Shown here piece after piece: positions 1 to 8,899 of a stretch of DNA of 8,899 bases. Position numbers and translations under genes: made by a program. The notes under the pieces were generated by a model. The model was not told the DNA's origin. It saw only the letters and a program-made list of their open reading frames with translations, and searched no databases. Each line of letters starts with the position of its first letter. Positions within the stretch are counted from its first letter, which is position 1. The DNA comes from a virus (lineage: Duplodnaviria > Heunggongvirae > Uroviricota > Caudoviricetes): positions 1-8,899 of IMG/VR virus record IMGVR_UViG_2600255005_000007. One strand, 5' to 3'.

Positions 1-477
1 GTGATAAAGCGTGTTTTGCAGGCTGCGTTCGATGTCATCAACGCTGCGCCGCTGGCTGGCAGAGAGCGAGGCAATAAACGCTTCGGCTTTTTCCGGCGAC
101 TGCTGGCGATAAAGATTCGCCAGCCCGCGCACGGCGTTAGTGTTGCTACTGTCCATACGCAGCGTCTGCTGGTAATAGCGTTCAGCGGCGGGGTAATCTT
201 TGCGCGCCATCGCCACATCGCCCAGCCCCAGCACCGCATAGCTGTCGGCGTTATCGACATTGCGCGCCTGCTGGAACAGGCGTTCTGCCCGGTCGGGATT
301 ATTGGCTTTCAGCGCAGCATCGCCCTGCTGGATCGCCAGCCAGTAGCGATTCACCTTCAGCAGACTGTTCCATTTGTCGTTGTTGCTGCTGTGCGGATCC
401 AGCGCGAGGGCTTTTTCCAGATTCGCCACCGCATTAGCACGATCGCCATTCTGAGAATACGCCTGCCCCAGCGCCCC
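1..477 (-). pseudogene. bcsC: Internal fragment of cellulose synthase operon protein C (BcsC, TPR region). The N-terminal side is cut at 477/478; the gene continues past the window start.
   Basis: Reverse-complement translation of 477..1 reads GALGQAYSQNGDRANAVANLEKALALDPHSSNNDKWNSLLKVNRYWLAIQQGDAALKANNPDRAERLFQQARNVDNADSYAVLGLGDVAMARKDYPAAERYYQQTLRMDSSNTNAVRGLANLYRQQSPEKAEAFIASLSASQRRSVDDIERSLQN. I recognise this as the central TPR part of enterobacterial BcsC, nearly identical to my recollection of the E. coli protein. It is missing from the ORF track because it has no start or stop inside the window. Similarity ends abruptly at 477/478. Confidence 0.85.
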
Positions 478-2088
478 CGGAACGCGGCGAAAACATCAGA
501 GACGAATGCAGGTAACAGCGCGAAAGCGGCAGCTTCTTCAAAAACAGCCGCACAAAATGCAGCAACAGCGGCAGAACATTCAGAGACAAATGCCCGTGCG
601 TCAGAGGAAGCCTCCGCAGACAGTGAAGAGGCTTCCCGCCGTAATGCAGAGTCAGCCGCTGAAAATGCCGGAATCGCCACCACAAAAGCGCGGGAGGCCG
701 CAGCAGACGCAACAAAGGCCGGGCAGAAAAAGGATGAGGCTCTGTCGGCAGCGACACGAGCAGAAAAGGCGGCAGACCGCGCAGAAGCCGCAGCGGAAGT
801 GACTGCAGAGCCCTATGCGAATATAGTGCCGCCGCTGCCTGATGTATGGATACCGTTTAACGATACACTGGATATGATTACGGGGTTTTCGCCATCATAT
901 AAAAAGATTGTTATTGGTGACGATGAAATAACAATGCCAGGCGACAAGATTGTTAAGTTTAAACGTGCTTCAACAGCAACGTATATTAATAAGTCCGGCC
1001 AACTCAAGCTTGCTGAAGTTGATGAACCGCGATTTGAGCGCGATGGCTTATTGATTGAAGGACAGAGGACAAATTATCTGAGGAACTCAAATAAACCAGA
1101 CTCATGGACTGTTCATTCCGCACTGAATAAAACATTTGGCACTGATAAACAGGGGTTCAATTATGCCACGGTGACACCCACGGAAAGTATAGTGGGAACA
1201 ACAGGTGGCTATACTGTGCATGGTGTGGTTGCAGCAGACAGATTCCCGCTGGCAAGTGGTGAATGTTTCACTTTTTCGTGCCGGGTTAAAGGCGCTAAAG
1301 CACGATGCAGGTTAAGAGTTTCAGTTATTATTGGTGGAACAGATACATTCTCTGCTGACTCTTATCTTGATCTGGATACCCGGATCGCAACAGTAAGCGG
1401 TAATACATCCCTTATAACAGCCAAAGCTGAACAACAGGGCGAGTGGACCTACTATGAGGCCACTTATACAGCTAATACGGACATTGATACCGTTAACTGT
1501 GCTTTTTATATGACAAATAAAATAAGTAATGAGCCATTCTATGATGACTCAACATTAACCATGACGACGCCGCAAATTGAACTGGGCAATACGGCATCGT
1601 CATTTATTGTAACTACAATGCCAACAACACGCGCAAGTGATGTGGTTACTATCCCATCGCAGAATAACCTGTCAACACGGCCTTTTACGGTATTGTGCGA
1701 AGTAAGCAGGAACTGGAGTACACCGCCCAATGTTGCGCCAAGGATATTTGATGTTGGAGGGCACAGTATTGATGATAATTATTTATCGCTGGGGTTTGTT
1801 TCAACAGGAAAGATAAGCGCCAACGTAGGAATGGTTCAGCCACAAATTTCCTCAGATGGAGAAAGGTTCATTGTGGGTGTGAGAGCTAAATCTGATTTAT
1901 CAGTAAATGCAATATGCAGTGGTAATTATACAACAAACCTTAATGGTAAAATATTTGGAGTTACAGCAACATCGTACCGGTTTGGTGGGCAGACCGCAGC
2001 AGGAACGCGTCATTTGTTTGGACACATCAGAAATTTCAGAGTCTGGTTTAAAGAATTAAATGACAGGCAAATCAAGGAGGCAGTATGA
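478..2088 (+). CDS. Phage side tail fibre protein, 5'-truncated: Ala/Ser/Thr/Glu-rich shaft repeats followed by a distal receptor-binding region
   Basis: From 478 the frame reads RNAAKTSETNAGNSAKAAASSKTAAQNAATAAEHSETNARASEEA..., the low-complexity shaft repeat typical of lambdoid Stf-like fibres. A globular distal part follows, about 420 aa, ending ...TRHLFGHIRNFRVWFKELNDRQIKEAV. That tail resembles the usual end of LamG/ConA-like jelly-roll domains. The TGA stop at 2086-2088 overlaps the next ATG. There is no start codon of its own; the upstream open frame (1-477) is bcsC antisense. Confidence 0.8.
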   Translation, partial: RNAAKTSETNAGNSAKAAASSKTAAQNAATAAEHSETNARASEEASADSEEASRRNAESAAENAGIATTKAREAAADATKAGQKKDEALSAATRAEKAADRAEAAAEVTAEPYANIVPPLPDVWIPFNDTLDMITGFSPSYKKIVIGDDEITMPGDKIVKFKRASTATYINKSGQLKLAEVDEPRFERDGLLIEGQRTNYLRNSNKPDSWTVHSALNKTFGTDKQGFNYATVTPTESIVGTTGGYTVHGVVAADRFPLASGECFTFSCRVKGAKARCRLRVSVIIGGTDTFSADSYLDLDTRIATVSGNTSLITAKAEQQGEWTYYEATYTANTDIDTVNCAFYMTNKISNEPFYDDSTLTMTTPQIELGNTASSFIVTTMPTTRASDVVTIPSQNNLSTRPFTVLCEVSRNWSTPPNVAPRIFDVGGHSIDDNYLSLGFVSTGKISANVGMVQPQISSDGERFIVGVRAKSDLSVNAICSGNYTTNLNGKIFGVTATSYRFGGQTAAGTRHLFGHIRNFRVWFKELNDRQIKEAV

Positions 2089-2363
2089 AAGATTTAACTT
2101 TGAAATTTCCTGGTAACAGAGAGTTTAAATCCTTCCTGTCATCTCTTGACTGGGAGGAAGATGAAGACCTCCAGAATAAACTGTTAGTCGATGAAATTGG
2201 TTTCACCTACACAGAAACAGGGGTAACTGAAGAGGGAGAACCTGTCTGTATCCGGAATAACGGTTATTTTGTCAACATTCGCATTCTTGATGACTTGTTT
2301 GATGTTTCTGTATTCTCTGATTATGTCGTGGAGCTGGAAACACCGCTTCGGGAATGGAGCTGA
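2085..2363 (+). CDS. Small acidic protein (92 aa), translationally coupled to the tail fibre gene. Possibly a fibre chaperone or accessory protein; function unknown.
   Basis: ATGA start/stop overlap with the tail fibre gene. Strong SD (caAGGAGGcagtATG). Acidic composition (DWEEDEDL, TEEGEP). It does not match the classic Tfa sequence I know, so the function is inferred from position only. Confidence 0.6.
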   Translation: MKDLTLKFPGNREFKSFLSSLDWEEDEDLQNKLLVDEIGFTYTETGVTEEGEPVCIRNNGYFVNIRILDDLFDVSVFSDYVVELETPLREWS

Positions 2364-2375
2364 AAGGAGGAAATA

Positions 2376-2669
2376 ATGGATATAAGCCCCTTACTTCATG
2401 CACTTTGTGCTGTGGCTGCGCAGATACTGGTTGGTCTTTTTACCGGAAACTGGGCTTACGGAGCGATAGCCGGTTGTACGTTCTTCATTGCGCGTGAACA
2501 TACCCAGGCAGAATATCGCTGGATTGAAATGTTCGGGCATGGCAAGCGAATGAATATGCCGTGGTGGGGCGGATTTGATCCGCGCGCGTGGGATGTGGCA
2601 AGCCTGATGGATTTTGCTGTGCCGGTGGTGGCGTGTCTGCTGGTCTGGCTGTTGGTTAATCGTGGGTGA
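2376..2669 (+). CDS. Small integral membrane protein (97 aa, about 3 hydrophobic segments), prophage accessory or moron-like
   Basis: Strong SD (gaAAGGAGGaaataATG). Hydrophobic stretches are ISPLLHALCAVAAQILVGLFTG, AYGAIAGCTFFIA and LMDFAVPVVACLLVWLLV. It sits 12 nt after the previous stop. The 3' end lies next to the junction with the recombinase fragment, so the native C-terminus is uncertain. Confidence 0.6.
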   Translation: MDISPLLHALCAVAAQILVGLFTGNWAYGAIAGCTFFIAREHTQAEYRWIEMFGHGKRMNMPWWGGFDPRAWDVASLMDFAVPVVACLLVWLLVNRG

Positions 2670-2679
2670 AAAAAGGTGG

Positions 2680-3033
2680 GCTGTATATGCAACGGAGGAA
2701 GAAACCCGGGAGAAAGCGCGGATACAGAAACCGGGTGCCTGTCACATCTTCCGGCACTCGATGGCAACGCAGATGCTGGACAACGGCGCAGACACGCGGC
2801 ACATCCAGGCGATCCTCGGCCATGAGAAGCTGGAGACGACGCAGATCTACACGCGGGTAGCCATCGGTCACTTACAGGAAGTTCACGCGCTGACGCACCC
2901 GGAAGAGCAGGACGAGACGTGGACGGATCGGCACGTTGCGGATGCGGTGGCAGAGCCGCAGACGCGCCGGGAGCGTAATCACGCAGAGATGGAGCGGGCG
3001 CTGGTCAGCAGGAAACGCCGCCGGAGACGCTGA
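2680..3033 (+). pseudogene. C-terminal catalytic fragment of a tyrosine recombinase/integrase; the N-terminal two thirds are missing
   Basis: The translation contains ...KARIQKPGACHIFRHSMATQMLDNGADTRHIQAILGHEKLETTQIYTRVAIGHL. This gives the H-x-x-R box, the LGH box and the catalytic Tyr (IYTRV) of the XerC/D-phage integrase superfamily. The first catalytic Arg and the core-binding domain are absent. The upstream part of ORF 2614-3033 only overlaps the membrane-protein gene in another frame. The left boundary is approximate, about 2670-2700. Confidence 0.8.
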
Positions 3034-3110
3034 TGCAGGCCGGAAGCGTGATCATCGCCGGACTGCCTGAAAAGTTAGCGGGCGATCCCTGTAAGGCCGT
3101 GGGGTGAGGT

Positions 3111-3154
3111 GCAGGGCAGACAACCGCCTTCCCTGGCGGTTGACTGCCCCCTGC
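3111..3154. repeat. Imperfect inverted repeat / hairpin 1
   Basis: Perfect 8-bp core caaccgcc (3121-3128) / ggcggttg (3135-3142) with a 6-nt loop, ttccct. The outer arms gcagggcaga / actgccccctgc extend the pairing with one A-A mismatch and a 2-nt bulge. Confidence 0.7.
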
Positions 3155-3174
3155 CAGCGGAGTGCGCGGGGGTA

Positions 3175-3240
3175 AATGCCGTTCGCCCCGTGGAGGCAGG
3201 CGTGTCCCATGCGGCCACGGCGCACGGGGCAAACGTCATT
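3175..3240. repeat. Imperfect inverted repeat / hairpin 2
   Basis: The 18-nt arms aatgccgttcgccccgtg (3175-3192) and cacggggcaaacgtcatt (3223-3240) pair at 16 of 18 positions around a 30-nt loop. Confidence 0.7.
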
Positions 3241-3242
3241 CA

Positions 3243-3339
3243 ACATAATGCGGGGGATTATGCGCACTCTCGCCGGGTGGCAACGGCGGCGAACCCGACC
3301 CGCTGTGCGCGGCTCGTGTTCGCACAATCCGCATTATGT
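3243..3339. repeat. Imperfect inverted repeat / hairpin 3
   Basis: Perfect 11-bp outer stem acataatgcgg (3243-3253) / ccgcattatgt (3329-3339). After a GGG bulge, an inner stem attatgcgcac (3257-3267) pairs with gtgttcgcaat-type sequence (3318-3328) at 9 of 11 positions. The apical region is about 50 nt. Confidence 0.7.
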
Positions 3340-3975
3340 CTTGCGCCCCCGCGTTCAGCCCCTTAACCAGTGCCACGCGCAGCAGCTCGCTGGCGCTCGC
3401 TCCTGCCGTCTCAGCGGCGGTGTCCTTCCTCAGCGCCGCAGTCGCCGCCATCCCTGGCGGCTCCGGTGCCGTTCTGCGGCGGCGTCATCGTGTGGCAGTC
3501 AGTCAGAAAAGGGTGTCGGCCTGGCGGCCTCCGCTTGTAAGGGCTTTATGCCCGCCCGGCGTCGTCTGGCTGCGGCGGCTCGTGCCGCGCAAAAAGGCCG
3601 CGCGTCACTCGTTCCCGCCTCGCCAGCTTCCGCTGCCCGCCCCGGTCCGGTGTGGTCATGCAAAGGCCAGCTCCGGTCAGGCAGCGGTGCCACAGAGCGC
3701 CGTTCCGTCGCTTGCGGACTCTCTGCCGCCCGCACCCGCAGACCCCGCGCCGTGGCCCCGCCATGCCGCCGGAGGCGGCCTGGCGGCCCCCCGTCACGGG
3801 TTGCCGGAAACGGACTTAGTGGAAAGCGGAATGACAGGTTCGTGGCGGTGGTGATATGGTGAGCGGGCGTGAAAACGCGCGTCGGGAAAGCCGGGTTAAC
3901 GTGCTGTTAAATAATTAAAAGGTGATAGCCGTGAAGCCAGAAACGGCGCGGGCGGTAGCGTGTTAAAAAGTATGA

Positions 3976-4401
3976 CCCGCACCGGATCGTCCCGATGACC
4001 CGATAGGGCTGAGAGGCGGATTAAACTTATACCAATACGCGCCTAATCCAGTAAACTGGATCGATCCTTTGGGTTTGAAATGTGGGCAACCTGAATGGAC
4101 AAATCATGGATACAAACATTTTCCTCCAAAAAACAAATCATGGAAGGATATAATTAAATCAACAAAATCAGGCCCGGCAAAATATTCTCCAGATATTGAT
4201 ATTAAAACGTTGGAATACGATGTTTTTAATACAGGCACACCTGTTACGAACGGTAAACCATGGAAAGTAAAAGATATGGGAAAAGTTATTGGGGCCAGTG
4301 AGGGTAAAGAATCTCAATGGGTTCGAGTTGAACTTAGCGGTGGGACAATACATGGACATCCTATATCAATCGATGAATTCCGAAGGCTAACAACATCATG
4401 A
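3976..4401 (+). CDS. Orphan Rhs C-terminal toxin tip 1: core-end remnant plus a toxin domain of unrecognised family, about 110 aa, with no start codon of its own
   Basis: The open frame reads [49 protein letters not shown]...[27 protein letters not shown]. DPIGLxGGxNxYxYxxNPxxxxDPxGL is the hallmark boundary between the Rhs/YD core and its variable toxin tip. The 'start' in the ORF track (4069) is only the TTG encoding a Leu of DPLGL. Upstream, tatgacccg (YDP) sits in another frame, so the remnant is frameshifted. Confidence 0.8.
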
Positions 4402-4691
4402 ACATTGATTTCTTAGGAAAAAAAGGGAATATAGTTTTTAATGACTTCTCCCTGAAACAAAGCATCCCTCTTAATGAACAGCGAGATGAACTTAAGGAAG
4501 ATATGCTCCAGGTTGAATATCCTGGTGGGTATCTTTTGGATGTTGGGTGGCGACCATCTTTTGATATAAATGGGAAGTTTTATATTTGTTTAATAAAGGA
4601 TTTTGATTGGGATTATCCCATTTATAATGGTTCTGCGAAAGATATTGTCTCATTATTATTTGAAATTAACCAAGCTATAAATAAACTTTAA
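4398..4691 (+). CDS. Putative cognate immunity protein 1 (97 aa)
   Basis: ATGA overlap with the toxin stop. AT-rich. The small cytoplasmic-looking protein sits immediately 3' of an Rhs-CT, the canonical immunity position. A terminator hairpin follows. Confidence 0.65.
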
Positions 4692-4700
4692 ATAAACTTT

Positions 4701-4740
4701 AAAAAAACTGGGAAGAAAATTAAATCTTCCCGGCTTTTTA
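4701..4740. terminator. Bidirectional rho-independent terminator between immunity 1 and SymE-like copy A
   Basis: Stem ctgggaag (4708-4715) / cttcccgg (4726-4733), 8 bp including one G-U pair, with a 10-nt loop. It is flanked by an A7 run on the left (4701-4707) and T5 on the right (4735-4739). Confidence 0.7.
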
Positions 4741-5006
4741 TTATTTAACTCTCGTTCAGCACACTAAACATCCCGTTCCGCATCCCCTTAACCGCCTGTT
4801 TGACCTGGTAAAGTTCCCTGCGCAGTTCCTGTACTTCGTTGTTATCCGCTAGCAGGATCAGGCAACCTTCCGAGATCTTCACGGTAACGCCCGTGCCGAT
4901 CTCAAATCCCGCTTCTCTCAGCCATTTGGCGCTGATTTTGATCACCGGCGTGTCGCTTCGGTTGGGCAGATAGCCCACGGTACAGTGGCGCTGTGTTTTG
5001 GAAATG
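4719..5006. repeat. Direct repeat copy A (288 bp): right half of the terminator plus the SymE-like ORF
   Basis: Aligns base for base with 7311-7599, with 7 substitutions and 1 T-run indel. Identity ends sharply after ...gtgttttggaaatg. Confidence 0.9.
4745..4978 (-). CDS. SymE-family (AbrB/SpoVT-fold, type I toxin-like) protein, copy A, probably 5'-truncated
   Basis: The translation ...TVGYLPNRSDTPVIKISAKWLREAGFEIGTGVTVKISEGCLILLA... matches the SymE signature as I recall it from E. coli SymE ([48 protein letters not shown]). The only available start is the GTG that encodes the Val of TVGY, and it has no SD. The frame stays open upstream to a TAA with no start codon. Confidence 0.7.
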   Translation of the reverse strand: MGYLPNRSDTPVIKISAKWLREAGFEIGTGVTVKISEGCLILLADNNEVQELRRELYQVKQAVKGMRNGMFSVLNES

Positions 5007-5159
5007 ATATTTTTGTATTTAACCTGCTGATTAGATAGTAAAATAAACTTCGTGCAGATAGCTTACTTTGTCAGGGTGTGGCGGTAGCGTATGAACTATG
5101 ACGTGATGGTTTTAGTGATTTATAGACGAAACTGACAGTACGATCCGGACTTCGATTAG

Positions 5160-5621
5160 ATTGCGCGATTTGACCCGATAGGGCTGGCGGGGGGGCTGAA
5201 TCTTTATCAGTATGCGCCGAATCCGTTAAACTGGATCGATCCGCTTGGATTAAGTTGCTCTAGTGATGCAAAAAAATTATCTGGTAATTTAGGATCAGCA
5301 CCAAGTAGTCACTATCGACCACATCATATGGTTATGTCTAATTCCAGCGATGTGCGTATGCGGTGGTTACGTAGAAGGATGGATCGGTTAGGTATAGATA
5401 TAAACGATTCCAAAAATGGTGTATGGCTACCCAAAAACTCTGATTATCGGTTACCGGGGACAAAAGCTACTGCTCATGGTGGTGAAGGTGTACATGGAAA
5501 TGCATATAAACAACATGTGTGGGATACGTTGAAAAATGCAAGAACAAAAGCTGATTTTGAAGCAGGGCTTGCGCAACTTAAAGTAGAGCTAAGTACTGGC
5601 AAAACGTTTCCTGTCCAATAA
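5160..5621 (+). CDS. Orphan Rhs C-terminal toxin tip 2: HNH/EndoVII-superfamily AHH-type nuclease domain, no start codon of its own
   Basis: The open frame after TAG (5157-5159) reads [40 protein letters not shown]...[10 protein letters not shown]...[16 protein letters not shown]...[15 protein letters not shown]. The xHH dyad, the downstream NG-x-x-LP and the H-x-x-H-x-x-Y fit the AHH nuclease toxin family, here with PHH. The M at 5328 in the ORF track is internal, in the middle of the HH motif. Confidence 0.8.
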
Positions 5622-5634
5622 GGAGTATGATCAC

Positions 5635-6252
5635 ATGAAAGATTTTCTGAAAAGTTTATATGAAGATTACAATGGAAAGTATTCGGAACTGATAGAACAG
5701 ATGAACGGAGAAAAGGCTACTTGTAGATGGGGGTATGGTGTTATGCCTGCCTTCTCTATAGAACCTTATGCATCCGAGCTTTTAGGTCATAAACCGGGAC
5801 GAATGTTGAAAAATAACTCAATCGCAGGAGTAAATAAACAATGCTATTATGTTGATGAACAAAACAGGATAATAGAAGGAATTACATACGCCAGCCATCG
5901 TAAGAAAGATAATGAATGGATTGTGTATAGAAATTTTTATATTTACCAAGAAAATACCATTCTTGGGCTTTTGTATAGTAGTACATTTGAAGATAGTAAA
6001 AACACAGGATTGAATAAGATTGTATTTATAAGCATTGATAATAAATTAATAAATAATAAGTATACTTTCATGTATGATGGGGAGTATTCTGAGGTAGATT
6101 ATATTTATAATAAAGATAAAATAATAAAAATAGACCAAAGGGTATGGTCTTCGTTTTATTTTGAACGCACTTATCTGATAGAGTCAAATGATCCATTGAT
6201 TATTAATGAATACTTAGAAAATAGTGGGAACATCAGGATCTACCCTACTTAA
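5635..6252 (+). CDS. Putative cognate immunity protein 2 (205 aa)
   Basis: Good SD (taAGGAGtatgatcacATG) 13 nt after the toxin stop. Very AT-rich. Immunity position. I recognise no domain. Confidence 0.65.
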   Translation: MKDFLKSLYEDYNGKYSELIEQMNGEKATCRWGYGVMPAFSIEPYASELLGHKPGRMLKNNSIAGVNKQCYYVDEQNRIIEGITYASHRKKDNEWIVYRNFYIYQENTILGLLYSSTFEDSKNTGLNKIVFISIDNKLINNKYTFMYDGEYSEVDYIYNKDKIIKIDQRVWSSFYFERTYLIESNDPLIINEYLENSGNIRIYPT

Positions 6253-6345
6253 TTTATCAAAGTAAGAGACTAATATATGGACTATGATGCGGCTGTTTCA
6301 GGGATATGCGATTGAAGCCAGTAGTATGATCCTGCGATGGGGTAG

Positions 6346-6801
6346 ATTCACCGTCCTGATCCGATAGGGCTGGCGGGGGGAATAAACCTCTATGCTTATG
6401 CGCCGAATCCAGTAAACCACATTGATCCTCTTGGGCTATCTTGTGGAAAGGTTGGTAACGTTGAATATCGTAATTTTGAGCGTTCTCCGGGAATGTTTTC
6501 TCGGTTATTAAAGAATAAACGTGACTTTGATTATGTTGCCAGATATAACATCTCAAGATATAAAGCTACATTGAGAAAAAATAATCCGGATGGTTTTGGT
6601 AATATTAGCCATTATTTCGATGGTGTAGATGCAAAAGGAAATAAAGTCGTTATTGAGGTGGCGAATACAGGGCATAAATCTTCAAGCGGTGGTTTTGAGC
6701 CTCCACATATTAAAATTCAAATAAAAGACGCTGATAACAAAGTGATACATAATGCCAAATATTTTTTGGAAGATGATATATATAGAATTACGGGCAAATA
6801 A
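6346..6801 (+). CDS. Orphan Rhs C-terminal toxin tip 3: toxin domain of unrecognised family, about 125 aa, with no start codon of its own
   Basis: The open frame after TAG (6343-6345) reads [76 protein letters not shown]...PPHIKIQIKDADNKVIHNAKYFLEDDIYRITGK. It has the same core/toxin boundary motif. The M at 6493 in the ORF track is internal. Confidence 0.8.
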   Translation: MHRPDPIGLAGGINLYAYAPNPVNHIDPLGLSCGKVGNVEYRNFERSPGMFSRLLKNKRDFDYVARYNISRYKATLRKNNPDGFGNISHYFDGVDAKGNKVVIEVANTGHKSSSGGFEPPHIKIQIKDADNKVIHNAKYFLEDDIYRITGK

Positions 6802-7260
6802 ATGAAAAATATTAGAGAGTTAAATAATGCAGAATTCTCCGGGCTTATTAACAATGCTTTACCATTCTTACATATTAATCCTATAAGCGAAGCTGTTTGT
6901 ATTCATGCAGAAGCTTATAAAAGTGGTATTGATGTTAACTATATCCGTTGCAACGTTGACTGGGAGGGGTTTTCTTCTTTAACTGAAGCGTTGGAAACGT
7001 TATACCATGAATTATTTAAAGATGGTATTCCATCAGGCGAATTGTTGTTTTTTTACCCGTTTGATAGAACAAAGAAAGGGAATTATGGTGTTATACTGGA
7101 ATCATCTCAGCTATTAGATTTCTTAATAAAAGAGCATTTGAAGATTTATCCTGAATGTTTTAATGTAGAAATGTGTAGCTTCGGTTTTTATTTTATAGAT
7201 CACGAAATATTTTACGGCATGGAACATCCTGATTTTTTATATAGTTTCTGTGTAAGATAA
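6802..7260 (+). CDS. Putative cognate immunity protein 3 (152 aa)
   Basis: The ATG directly abuts the toxin TAA (taaATG), implying translational coupling. AT-rich. Immunity position. A terminator hairpin follows. Confidence 0.65.
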   Translation: MKNIRELNNAEFSGLINNALPFLHINPISEAVCIHAEAYKSGIDVNYIRCNVDWEGFSSLTEALETLYHELFKDGIPSGELLFFYPFDRTKKGNYGVILESSQLLDFLIKEHLKIYPECFNVEMCSFGFYFIDHEIFYGMEHPDFLYSFCVR

Positions 7261-7297
7261 TTAATAAAGTGAGGAGTATATTTCTCTTTCTTAATCG

Positions 7298-7332
7298 CCG
7301 GGAAAGGTAGATTAAATCTTCCCGGCTTTTTT
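7298..7332 (+). terminator. Rho-independent terminator after immunity 3, homologous to the one at 4701-4740
   Basis: Stem ccgggaa (7298-7304) / ttcccgg (7319-7325), followed by gc and T6 (7327-7332). Confidence 0.7.
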
Positions 7333-7599
7333 ATTATTTAACGTTCGTTCAGCACACTAAACATCCCGTCCCGCATCCCCTTAACAGCCTGTTTAACCTG
7401 ATAAAGTTCCCTGCGCAGTTCCTGTACTTCGTTGTTATCCGCTAGCAGGATCAGGCAACCTTCCGAGATCTTCACGGTAACGCCCGTGCCGATCTCAAAT
7501 CCCGCTTCTCTCAGCCATTTGGCGCTGATTTTGATCACCGGCGTGTCGCTGCGGTTGGGCAGATAGCCCACGGTACAGTGGCGCTGTGTTTTGGAAATG
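7311..7599. repeat. Direct repeat copy B (289 bp)
   Basis: See copy A. The repeat ends at the same ...ggaaatg, after which the primase-like frame begins. Confidence 0.9.
7338..7571 (-). CDS. SymE-family protein, copy B, probably 5'-truncated. The ORF track extends it to 7619.
   Basis: Same sequence as copy A with 2 amino-acid differences (N/D, and terminal S/R). The 16 extra N-terminal codons in the track (7572-7619) begin with a GTG that lies outside the repeat, on the antisense of the primase fragment, and has no SD. I treat that extension as fortuitous. Confidence 0.7.
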   Translation of the reverse strand: MGYLPNRSDTPVIKISAKWLREAGFEIGTGVTVKISEGCLILLADNNEVQELRRELYQVKQAVKGMRDGMFSVLNER

Positions 7600-8824
7600 G
7601 TGGGCCGCACTGCTGGCACACGGCGTCAGGCAGGTACTGATCGCCTACGACAACGATCCGGCGGGCAATGAGGCGGCGGTGAAACTGGCTTCTTCCTTAG
7701 CCGCTTCCGGGATCGCCACGTTCCGCGTACTGTTCCCGGCGGGCATGGATGCGAACGGTTATCTGTGCAGTGTGGCAGAGCCGGAACAGGCGTTCAGTCT
7801 GTTGCTGGATGGCGCGGTGCCCATGAGTGACCTGGCCGATGCGGAGAGTATCGCGCCGCAGGCCAGCGCGGAGCCTGCACACCTGACTTCATTAGCTGCC
7901 GGGGTTGCGGTCTTACCCGCAGCCGCCGCGCCTGCACCGGGCGTCAGCGTGGAAACCCTGGCCGATGGCGAACTGATGGTAGCCTTACCCGGCGAACGCT
8001 GGACTATCAGGGGCGTAAGCCGCAAACCGAACGTCGCCGCGATGAAGGTCAATGCGCAGGTGCTGGACACCAACAGCGGCGTGGTGTTCGCTGATGCGGT
8101 GGATATGATGAGCGCCCGCAGCCGTTCCGGTTATGCGCGGGCCGCAGCGGCAGAGCTTGGGCTTGCCGAAGGCGACCTGCGCCGTTCGCTGGGTAAGGTG
8201 CTGCTGGCGCTGGAGCACTGGCAGGCGGCACCGGAGCCGGAGAGCGTCGCCCCGGAGATGACGCCGGAAGATCGGGAGGCGGCGCTGGATCTGCTGCGCG
8301 ACGAGTGTCTTGCCGGGCGCATCGCTTCTGATATGGCGGCGTGTGGCGTGGTGGGTGAGTCCACCAACCTGACGGCGGCGTATCTGGCGGCGGTGTCACG
8401 CAAACTGGAGCGCCCGCTTGCCGTTCTCATCCAGTCGTCGAGCGCGGCGGGTAAGTCCAGCTTAATGGATGCGGTGCTCAATCTGATCCCGCCAGAGGAA
8501 CGGCTGCAATACAGCGCCATGACCGGGCAGAGCCTGTTCTACCTCGGCGAAACCAACCTGCAACACAAGATCCTCGCCATCGCAGAAGAAGAAGGTGTGC
8601 GCCAGGCGGCGTATGCGCTGAAACTGTTGCAATCAGACGGGGAACTGACCATCGCCAGTACGGGCAAGGACGACGCCAGCGGCAACCTGGTCACCAAACA
8701 GTACACGGTGAAAGGCCCGGTGATGCTGATGCTGACCACCACGGCGATCGACGTCGATGAAGAACTGTTAAACCGCTGCCTGGTGCTGACGGTGAACGAG
8801 TCGCGGGAGCAGACGGAGGCCGAA
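7598..8824 (+). pseudogene. Internal fragment of a Toprim / P-loop NTPase primase-helicase-like protein of an integrative or conjugative element, truncated at both ends
   Basis: VLIAYDNDPAGNEAAVKLA...FRVLFPAGMDANGYL looks like the distal Toprim DxD region. Later, LIQSSSAAGKSSLMDAV is Walker A-like and HKILAIAEEEG is Walker B-like. The codon usage is GC-rich and coding-like, and all minus-strand ORFs here are shadows. There is no native start because the frame enters from the SymE repeat. At the 3' end the reading frame runs into the rrn leader and stops there fortuitously. Confidence 0.7.
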
Positions 8825-8899
8825 CTGCTCTTTAACAATTTATCAGACAATCTGTGTGGGCACTCGAAGATACGGATTCTTAACGTCCTCGGACGATAA
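8824..8899 (+). promoter_or_regulatory. rRNA operon leader including the boxA antitermination element; 16S rRNA expected just downstream of the window
   Basis: actgctctttaacaatttatcagacaatctgtgtgggcactcgaagatacggattcttaacgtc is identical to my recollection of the E. coli rrn leader downstream of P2. boxA tgctctttaacaa is at 8826-8838. The following small hairpin differs in a compensatory way (cgtcctcggacg versus cgtcgcaagacg), consistent with a natural rrn variant. Confidence 0.8.

Follow-up and report, generated by a model that had tools for sequence, protein, structure and literature searches.

Arrays of orphan toxin tips and immunity genes are central to the diversification of contact-dependent weapons, and the question of how tips arrive and are displaced has been open since 2009. 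The rAID-1 clusters of the Bacteroidales are recombinase-associated acquired interbacterial defense loci. In E. coli, Salmonella, and Serratia, rhs genes can be followed by orphan Rhs tips with their immunity genes (Jackson 2009, PMC2935791; Poole 2011, PMC3150448). For the displacement of tips, the one mechanism proposed has been homologous recombination by way of a hypothetical circular intermediate, with no integrase known to accompany Rhs (Jackson et al. 2009, PMC2935791). For an orphan Rhs of Salmonella Typhimurium, a toxin-antitoxin pair with an internal start has been reported (PMC7043789). XerC/D genes adjoin polyimmunity loci (Zhang et al. 2012, PMC3482391), "Rhs-associated integrases" were mentioned in bee-gut bacteria by Steele et al. 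without further analysis, and the position of SymE next to Rhs has been remarked on in the literature. Here, we analyzed a stretch of 8,899 nucleotides (IMG/VR virus record IMGVR_UViG_2600255005_000007, positions 1 to 8,899; the window), in which three orphan Rhs toxin tips with immunity genes follow the end of a tyrosine recombinase gene. Orphan Rhs and CdiA tips with immunity genes are already textbook knowledge; what is new is the organization of the array around a putative element dedicated to swapping tips. We consider that a site-specific, toxin-tip-swapping integrative element generated at least the first of the three orphans, with a probability of roughly 0.6. We found no description of a primase-integrase module at Rhs boundaries in the full-text literature, the coverage of which was incomplete. 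The features of the window that bear on this reading are as follows.

2706-3033, plus strand: 3' end of an Xer-like tyrosine recombinase (integrase) gene, the 5' part of which is lost at an assembly join at 2706.
3034-3996, plus strand: GC-rich (about 67%) non-coding spacer, ending TAAAAAGTAYGACC..CCGAT right before the D codon of DPIGL.
3236-3347, plus strand: conserved imperfect hairpin in the spacer, with the invariant base AACATAATG...CATTATGTC.
3997-4401, plus strand: orphan unit 1, the Rhs hyperconserved stub (3997-4077) and toxin CT1, with no core remnant and abutting the element spacer.
4398-4691, plus strand: imm1, orthologue of S. bongori A464_2173, whose start overlaps the CT1 stop (ATGA).
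5139-5621, plus strand: orphan unit 2, a core remnant (5139-5171), the stub (5172-5252), and the AHH-family toxin CT2 (tblastn, Pfam).
5635-6252, plus strand: imm2 (205 aa), 13 nt past the CT2 stop, with its own AAGGAG Shine-Dalgarno (SD) sequence.
6325-6801, plus strand: orphan unit 3, a core remnant (6325-6357), the stub (6358-6438), and toxin CT3 (tblastn).
6802-7260, plus strand: imm3 (152 aa), directly after the CT3 stop (TAAATG).

The proposed element would measure 6.6-7.5 kb. Its cargo, counted from the D codon of DPIGL, would consist of a toxin tip, an immunity gene, and symE, and its backbone of a helix-turn-helix (HTH) repressor, a primase that is probably the replication protein, the Xer-like recombinase, and the hairpin-bearing spacer of ~1 kb. 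The element would circularize and could persist or replicate as a small episome, and the recombinase would insert it into an active rhs gene, at its GAYCCNATHGG (D-P-I-G) codons. Integration would fuse the incoming tip in frame to the rhs core and push the resident tip 3' of the spacer, where it would become an orphan beginning exactly at DPIGL, as unit 1 does. Repeated integration would produce tandem arrays. Units 2 and 3, which keep 11-14 core codons, would be older displacements, possibly via homologous recombination. Excision, replication, and integration are steps that we infer from the comparison of loci, in which the anatomy, the conservation, and the precision of the junction were observed directly. 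We hold an autonomous episomal stage more tentatively than the integration itself, and we regard it as evenly balanced whether there is a widespread family of episome-capable elements (repressor, primase, Xer-like recombinase, and structured spacer) that insert at toxin-boundary codons (DPxGL of Rhs, VENN of CdiA) and orphan the old tips. If the reading is true, a dedicated element would explain the precise DPxGL junctions, the tandem arrays, and the spread of identical cassettes between loci, species, and toxin classes, and would supply the vehicle and the mechanism hitherto lacking for C-terminal displacement and for the horizontal mobility of toxin/immunity modules. Tip swapping would become directly testable and could be used to re-arm effectors of the type VI secretion system or of contact-dependent inhibition (CDI).

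Compared with known orphan Rhs tips, the units described here are alike in their DPxGL(18)DPxGL stub, the lack of a start, the AT-rich polymorphic toxin, and the coupled immunity gene, as well as in the attachment of tips to full-length Rhs in other strains (CT1 and a relative of CT3). They differ in that unit 1 has no core remnant and abuts conserved element sequence, and in that the array is interleaved with complete primase-integrase modules, which are absent from the earlier descriptions. Polyimmunity and rAID-1 loci likewise have an Xer-like tyrosine recombinase beside orphan immunity genes and toxin fragments. However, the recombinase studied here is accompanied by a primase, a repressor, and a structured spacer, keeps a fixed register with an active toxin boundary, and occurs in tandem with toxin-bearing cargo. 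Islands in tRNA genes and P4-type satellites share the combination of integrase, primase, and repressor, as well as insertion in a conserved gene whose frame is restored by element DNA. The target here is instead a protein-coding toxin gene and the primase is of the DnaG type (983 aa), and the new end is another toxin with its immunity gene, so that the phenotype would be changed rather than preserved. Integrons and elements of the CTX-phage type are alike in having a tyrosine recombinase of the Xer/IntI clade, promoterless cassettes behind a fixed expression platform, and a conserved imperfect hairpin of about 70-110 nt with a base like an Xer-binding arm. Unlike in integrons, the score against the IntI model is under the cut-off, the insertion point lies inside a coding sequence, and each element has just one hairpin, located about 650 nt away from the junction, instead of one for every cassette.

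We analyzed the anatomy of the three units, which share one orientation and have stop-to-stop frames at 3976-4401, 5160-5621, and 6346-6801. An earlier note, made from the letters of the window alone, had described three Rhs-boundary units here, each without a start codon or SD sequence and each tightly coupled to a small open reading frame (ORF), with toxin domains unrelated to each other and no YD-repeat core in the window. This description was borne out. The motifs lie at 3997-4077, 5172-5252, and 6358-6438, and the model TIGR03696 (Rhs_assc_core) was matched by units 1, 2, and 3 with 35.8, 34.5, and 35.4 bits, above the curated cut-off of 32.5. Inspection of starts and SD sequences found no canonical in-frame start 5' of any of the three motifs, and each toxin is joined to its small ORF in one of three tight ways (the ATGA overlap, the 13-nt gap with an SD sequence, and TAAATG). 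By BLASTP, the three toxins are mutually unrelated, as are the three proteins in the immunity position. Using tblastn with three full-length Rhs proteins, we found no YD core throughout the window and detected 11-14 residues of core before DPIGL in units 2 and 3 and zero in unit 1. The core remnants are interrupted by in-frame stops, one in unit 2 and several in unit 3. Because of the missing start codons and these stops, the toxins of the orphan units are predicted not to be translated. The three units are very probably displaced Rhs toxin tips that have kept their immunity genes, and the immunity genes, with their own ribosome-binding sites, probably still protect against neighbors armed with those toxins.

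To characterize the cargo, we compared the toxins and immunity proteins with known families. CT1 matched the PAAR-Rhs toxin of Salmonella bongori (PDB 8QJC; E = 6.6e-81, roughly 90% identity) and shared 97% identity with the tip of the full-length RhsC protein of E. coli 14EC033. By this similarity, CT1 is the orthologue of the S. bongori toxin and a predicted RNase. The authors of 8QJC predicted an RNase fold and could obtain the toxin only together with the immunity protein A464_2173. The primers for the S. bongori antitoxin encode MNIDF... and ...AINKL, which match the ends of imm1, and the imm1 gene also trails the CT1 toxin in E. coli 14EC033 (L002) and FDAARGOS_1373 (L094). CT2 matched Pfam AHH (PF14412; E = 1.3e-10, 41.7 bits against a gathering cut-off of 22.3), and its PHH motif is present, upstream of the ATG at 5328. 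The earlier call of one AHH-type nuclease therefore stands, but the description of the other two toxins as unrecognized does not hold for CT1, given its match to 8QJC. CT2 is an orphan in E. coli A37 too (91.9% identity) and was only an orphan among the records opened; imm2, for which family profile searches gave no match, is kept beside it in locus L001. CT3 shared 59% identity with the tip of a VgrG-linked, full-length Rhs of E. coli 21F61, and imm3 was 30% identical to the protein in the immunity position after that Rhs. Tips of the array are fused to full-length Rhs elsewhere in the case of CT1 (E. coli 14EC033, FDAARGOS_1373, and S. bongori 8QJC) and of the CT3 relative (21F61). An exhaustive HMMER search found relatives of CT3 in only 5 representatives among 1.84 billion proteins. 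A word-indexed protein search with CT3 was empty, a PDB sequence search gave chance-level matches only, and a single-sequence AlphaFold2 model had a predicted local distance difference test score of 52 and was unusable for a fold search. By these searches, CT3 is a very rare toxin family with no assigned family.

The intact context of the array was found in Escherichia ruysiae. There, a gene encoding a full-length Rhs of 1550 aa lies ~7 kb upstream of the orphan array, with one element between them. The order is Rhs, imm, SymE (minus strand), HTH repressor (minus strand), the 983-aa DnaG-type primase, a 366-aa tyrosine recombinase, and the spacer, followed by CT1/imm1, SymE, CT2/imm2, CT3/imm3, SymE, HTH, primase, recombinase, and spacer. 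The array ends with a deaminase tip, its immunity gene, and SymE, after which come yafV-ivy-fadE. This gene order was seen in loci L005-L007 and L014, and the GC-rich genes are complete there. The earlier note had considered the tips detached from any Rhs core and placed them in a truncated mobile-element context. Neither statement holds, since the 99.98%-identical E. ruysiae contig has the full-length rhs gene ~7 kb upstream and complete GC-rich genes, the truncation being due to assembly joins. The GC-rich context that had been flagged as unusual proved to be no accidental neighbor: it is an element that is conserved and recurrent and keeps a fixed register relative to the toxin boundary. 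The suggestion that orphan tips are reactivated through short core homology is doubtful. The stubs and the resident rhs gene share 56-86 nt at about 76% identity, with a longest exact run of 11-22 nt, and because this homology is short and diverged, reactivation of the orphan library by RecA should be inefficient.

The full 366-aa recombinase (L005) matched NF002331 with 527 bits (cut-off 371). It scored below the cut-off of the XerC equivalog TIGR02224 (224 vs 335 bits) and also below that of the XerD equivalog. By its score against TIGR02224 and its presence in up to 6 copies per genome, the element recombinase is not the housekeeping XerC. The repeat shared by copies of the module in L005 spans from just past symE through the end of the DPIGL stub. 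A comparison of two backbone copies (L005:1004-7266 vs 10492-16706) showed alternating blocks of about 100% and of 80-92% identity, which suggests repeated gene conversion between backbone copies.

We then examined how far this arrangement is conserved. A scan for the recombinase using one genome per species confirmed 551 relatives, and from these we retained the best 76 distinct loci. An invariant order was seen in Citrobacter, Edaphovirga, Pectobacterium, Photorhabdus, and Xenorhabdus: Rhs core-DPxGL-tip-imm, SymE, HTH, primase, recombinase, spacer, and DPxGL stub, with a spacer of about 0.9-1.35 kb. The units were often in tandem, with a period of 6.6-7.5 kb from DPxGL to DPxGL. Six loci (from Escherichia, Pectobacterium, Photorhabdus, Xenorhabdus, and Edaphovirga) had a backbone GC content of 58-62%, and the 13 spacers measured had 53-67%. 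The right end of the element and the junction are conserved to the nucleotide. Outside Escherichia, the stub after the recombinase begins at the D codon in 17 of 19 junctions. Before the D codon come about 33 nt that belong to the element and are conserved (TAAAAAGTAYGACCGCACCGGA..CCCTAW), at a place where full-length genes have true core. Different tips diverge within about 11 nt past the D codon, and therefore any crossover lies in GAYCCNATHGG.

Within E. coli, the recombinase-spacer-stub segment was present in 56 of 5426 complete genomes, at 197 places that were all chromosomal (median 4 per genome). In 39 of the 40 E. coli records listed, the segment was annotated XerC, usually with an Rhs or polymorphic-toxin fragment. 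The exception was E. coli IH5 (NZ_CP168949.1, about 4977567-4978842), where a MobH relaxase adjoins the recombinase-spacer segment; this may be a copy inside a conjugative element.

The cassette CT1-imm1-symE was observed in three states. The first, in E. coli 14EC033, is an active RhsC tip that lacks a backbone. In the second, found in E. coli FDAARGOS_1373, the cassette forms the active tip of a VgrG-linked Rhs and the backbone comes after it, with homology to the window starting exactly at 3997. In the third, that of the window, it is an orphan directly behind the backbone. Such a series would be expected if CT1 was displaced by a later element integrating at the DPIGL codons.

We also found two "circular plasmid" records that consist of the element alone, with primase, XerC, spacer, DPIGx stub, toxin, imm, SymE, and HTH. 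The Lonsdalea populi record (NZ_CP072857.1, L091; 11,289 bp) has a pair of cargo cassettes together with a complete backbone and a deleted one, plus RelE/DinJ. The Shigella flexneri record (NZ_CP055112.1, L090; 8,758 bp) corresponds at 98% to a single tandem unit of E. coli D6. The records could represent the episomal form.

The spacer that separates the recombinase from the stub is conserved between genera at the nucleotide level. We rejected it as a coding sequence: no codon periodicity was found in it, no ORF is conserved across genera, and its 217-aa ORF had no NCBIfam or PHROG match. A decayed Rhs core was also rejected, the tblastn search of the spacer being empty. The hairpin in the spacer has 24 pairs, of which 8 show compensatory changes (RNAalifold), and its inner stems covary. 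A covariance model scored it at 94.5 bits in the window, with the plus strand scoring far better. Of 20 Enterobacterales species loci, 13 had the hairpin, 0.2-0.4 kb past the recombinase; these were mostly the loci with sequence extending to that distance. The model also matched certain elements of Burkholderiales and Chromatiales. The hairpin exists in a long (~110 nt) and a short (~75 nt) form, and its base resembles an Xer-binding arm. The hairpin is a candidate recombination site, priming site, or RNA. Across the window, Rfam and ARAGORN found no known RNA and no tRNA target. Two other candidates were set aside. The sequence CCTGGCGG had been considered as an iteron, with 4 occurrences in Escherichia, and lacks conservation in other genera. 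The sequence 5' of stub 2 had been considered as a remnant of the spacer end, which would mean a deleted backbone, and was dropped because the match was of 11 nt (E = 0.22).

Several points weigh against a tip-swapping element as the source of unit 1. No excision, circle junction, or integration event was observed, and a search for a palindromic core site or an inverted repeat at the junction found none that was convincing. The circular records could instead be tandem repeats circularized by the assembler. Two of the 19 junctions outside Escherichia, both in Photorhabdus, have a stretch of rhs core, about 400 nt long, ahead of the stub. This core in Photorhabdus and the patches of 100% identity between backbone copies show that homologous recombination and gene conversion are clearly active in the arrays. 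Extra events, such as deletions or displacements by homologous recombination, would be needed to account for units 2 and 3 and for the terminal symE genes that have no backbone. The cargo is low in GC and the backbone high, so the cargo must have been exchanged often.

The main rival explanation is that RecA-dependent displacement, following the model of Jackson 2009, made all three orphans and that the GC-rich module is a selfish passenger. This explanation predicts that core remnants should vary in length, as those of units 2 and 3 do, and is consistent with the long core fragments in Photorhabdus units, the patchy 100% identity between backbone copies, and the many rhs loci that have orphans and symE but no backbone. 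We nevertheless consider it unlikely. The order and register of the backbone are constant, a conserved spacer end meets the D codon in six genera, and related backbones lie at the VENN and VANN boundaries of other toxin classes. Passive insertion of a passenger fails to explain why the upstream tip is in frame while the downstream tip starts exactly at DPIGL.

A domesticated, integron-like chromosomal platform is less likely still. Here, the recombinase would shuffle cassettes of tip, imm, and symE via the hairpin and the boundary, with no transfer of the whole element. The conserved imperfect hairpin beside an integrase is of attC-like size, one cassette was found with and without the backbone, and XerC/D has been associated with polyimmunity loci (Zhang et al. 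2012). The similarity of the recombinase to integron integrases is weak, however, at 124 bits against TIGR02249, which is far under the cut-off of 265 bits. The tandem repeat comprises the whole unit including the backbone rather than the cassette, and the foreign GC content, the primase, the repressor, the toxin-antitoxin genes of plasmid type that are sometimes present, and the occurrence on plasmids and as small circles all point to an autonomous element.

A third alternative, in which the orphans are not silent and internal starts yield intracellular toxins, each forming a toxin-antitoxin pair with the immunity protein encoded after it, is very improbable: the earliest in-frame starts, TTG 4069, ATG 5328, and ATG 6493, where gene callers mark short ORFs, all lack a convincing SD sequence, ATG 5328 lies past the catalytic histidines of the AHH toxin, and the region has 10 promoter-like sequences, under the shuffled expectation of 12.1.

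The truncated look of the window itself is an artifact of its source assembly. The window corresponds to L004:3200-12098 of the concatenated single-contig draft AEMF01000001.1 (4.46 Mb), with assembly joins near 476, 2706, 7602, and 8821. Its segments, together with the two symE genes, are as follows.

1-476: TPR/bcsC-like fragment.
476-2706: prophage tail-fibre DNA, 99% identical to E. coli B.
2706-7602: rhs/element segment, 99.98% identical to E. ruysiae L005:5905-10801 and contiguous there (L005/L014).
4745-4978, minus strand: ORF of symE copy 1, 5'-truncated, with homology to full symE up to 5006 (Pfam SymE_toxin, E = 2.5e-11).
7338-7601, minus strand: symE copy 2, whose first codons and promoter region are lost at the 7602 join (Pfam SymE_toxin, E = 7.9e-15).
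7602-8821, plus strand: internal fragment of the 983-aa DnaG-type primase gene of a second element copy, 100% identical to L005:12298-13517.
8822-8899: rrn leader, the last 78 bases of the window.

The counterpart of 7602-8821 sits 1.5 kb further along the E. ruysiae contig, and the draft is without L005:10802-12297. This primase fragment is the sole divergent, non-repeated stretch of the primase, and the break points of the draft coincide with the edges of near-identical blocks of the two L005 module copies. Beyond the window, the rrn leader is followed in the draft by a single complete 16S gene; there is no 23S, and an adhesin gene comes next. The window thus looks like unrelated contigs joined gaplessly at collapsed repeats. 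The integrase and primase are truncated and the rhs gene is absent from the window because the draft concatenated contigs that were broken at repeats. The orphan structure was also found in at least 9 other assemblies, including a 4.65 Mb E. ruysiae contig, two metagenome scaffolds, and several drafts. Judged by these assemblies, the orphan units themselves are not assembly artifacts. The earlier note had named, as a case against its claim, intact rhs genes whose 3' ends were split off by misassembly; this case is excluded because independent assemblies hold the identical orphan structure.

The earlier note had passed over the two minus-strand symE genes. The symE copies 1 and 2 are 97% identical across 289 nt, and a bidirectional terminator-like hairpin lies at 4708-4733, by copy 1. 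In E. ruysiae L005, copy 2 is complete and is followed by the HTH gene and then the primase. The intergenic region between symE and HTH is conserved (L014:6243-6323) and consists of TAGTTGCTTGTGGTGAGCG followed by a hairpin whose stem covaries between genera. This hairpin may act as a terminator common to the divergent symE and HTH genes or as a site for their regulation. The region is missing from the window owing to the 7602 join. Genes of the SymE family end nearly every Enterobacterales unit of Rhs tip and immunity gene, with or without a backbone (for example in L002, L019, L029, and L092). SymE, the constant companion of these Rhs tips, is a "type I toxin" with an AbrB fold.

Related arrangements were observed at the boundaries of other toxins. 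On the IncF plasmid CP074295.1 of Salmonella Rubislaw (L093:1-17200), a CdiA-like gene (...SVENN-tip) is followed by imm, HTH, primase, XerC, ParDE, and three orphans initiated at VENN. By its gene order, this locus is the CDI counterpart of the Rhs arrangement. The hairpin model gave no match to this CdiA-linked Salmonella backbone. One verrucomicrobial and one actinobacterial locus have analogous low-GC cargo past the recombinase. In Fluviicoccus keumensis (L054), the backbone follows a large toxin at ...NVANN, and the orphans begin GASGGVDVANN. The SymE position is occupied there by a 249-aa endonuclease-V-like protein (L054:5597-6346 and 12725-13474, minus strand). The cargo toxin of F. 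keumensis resembles a nucleic-acid deaminase (HAE...CxxC) and would thus be paired with a type of enzyme that cuts deaminated DNA.

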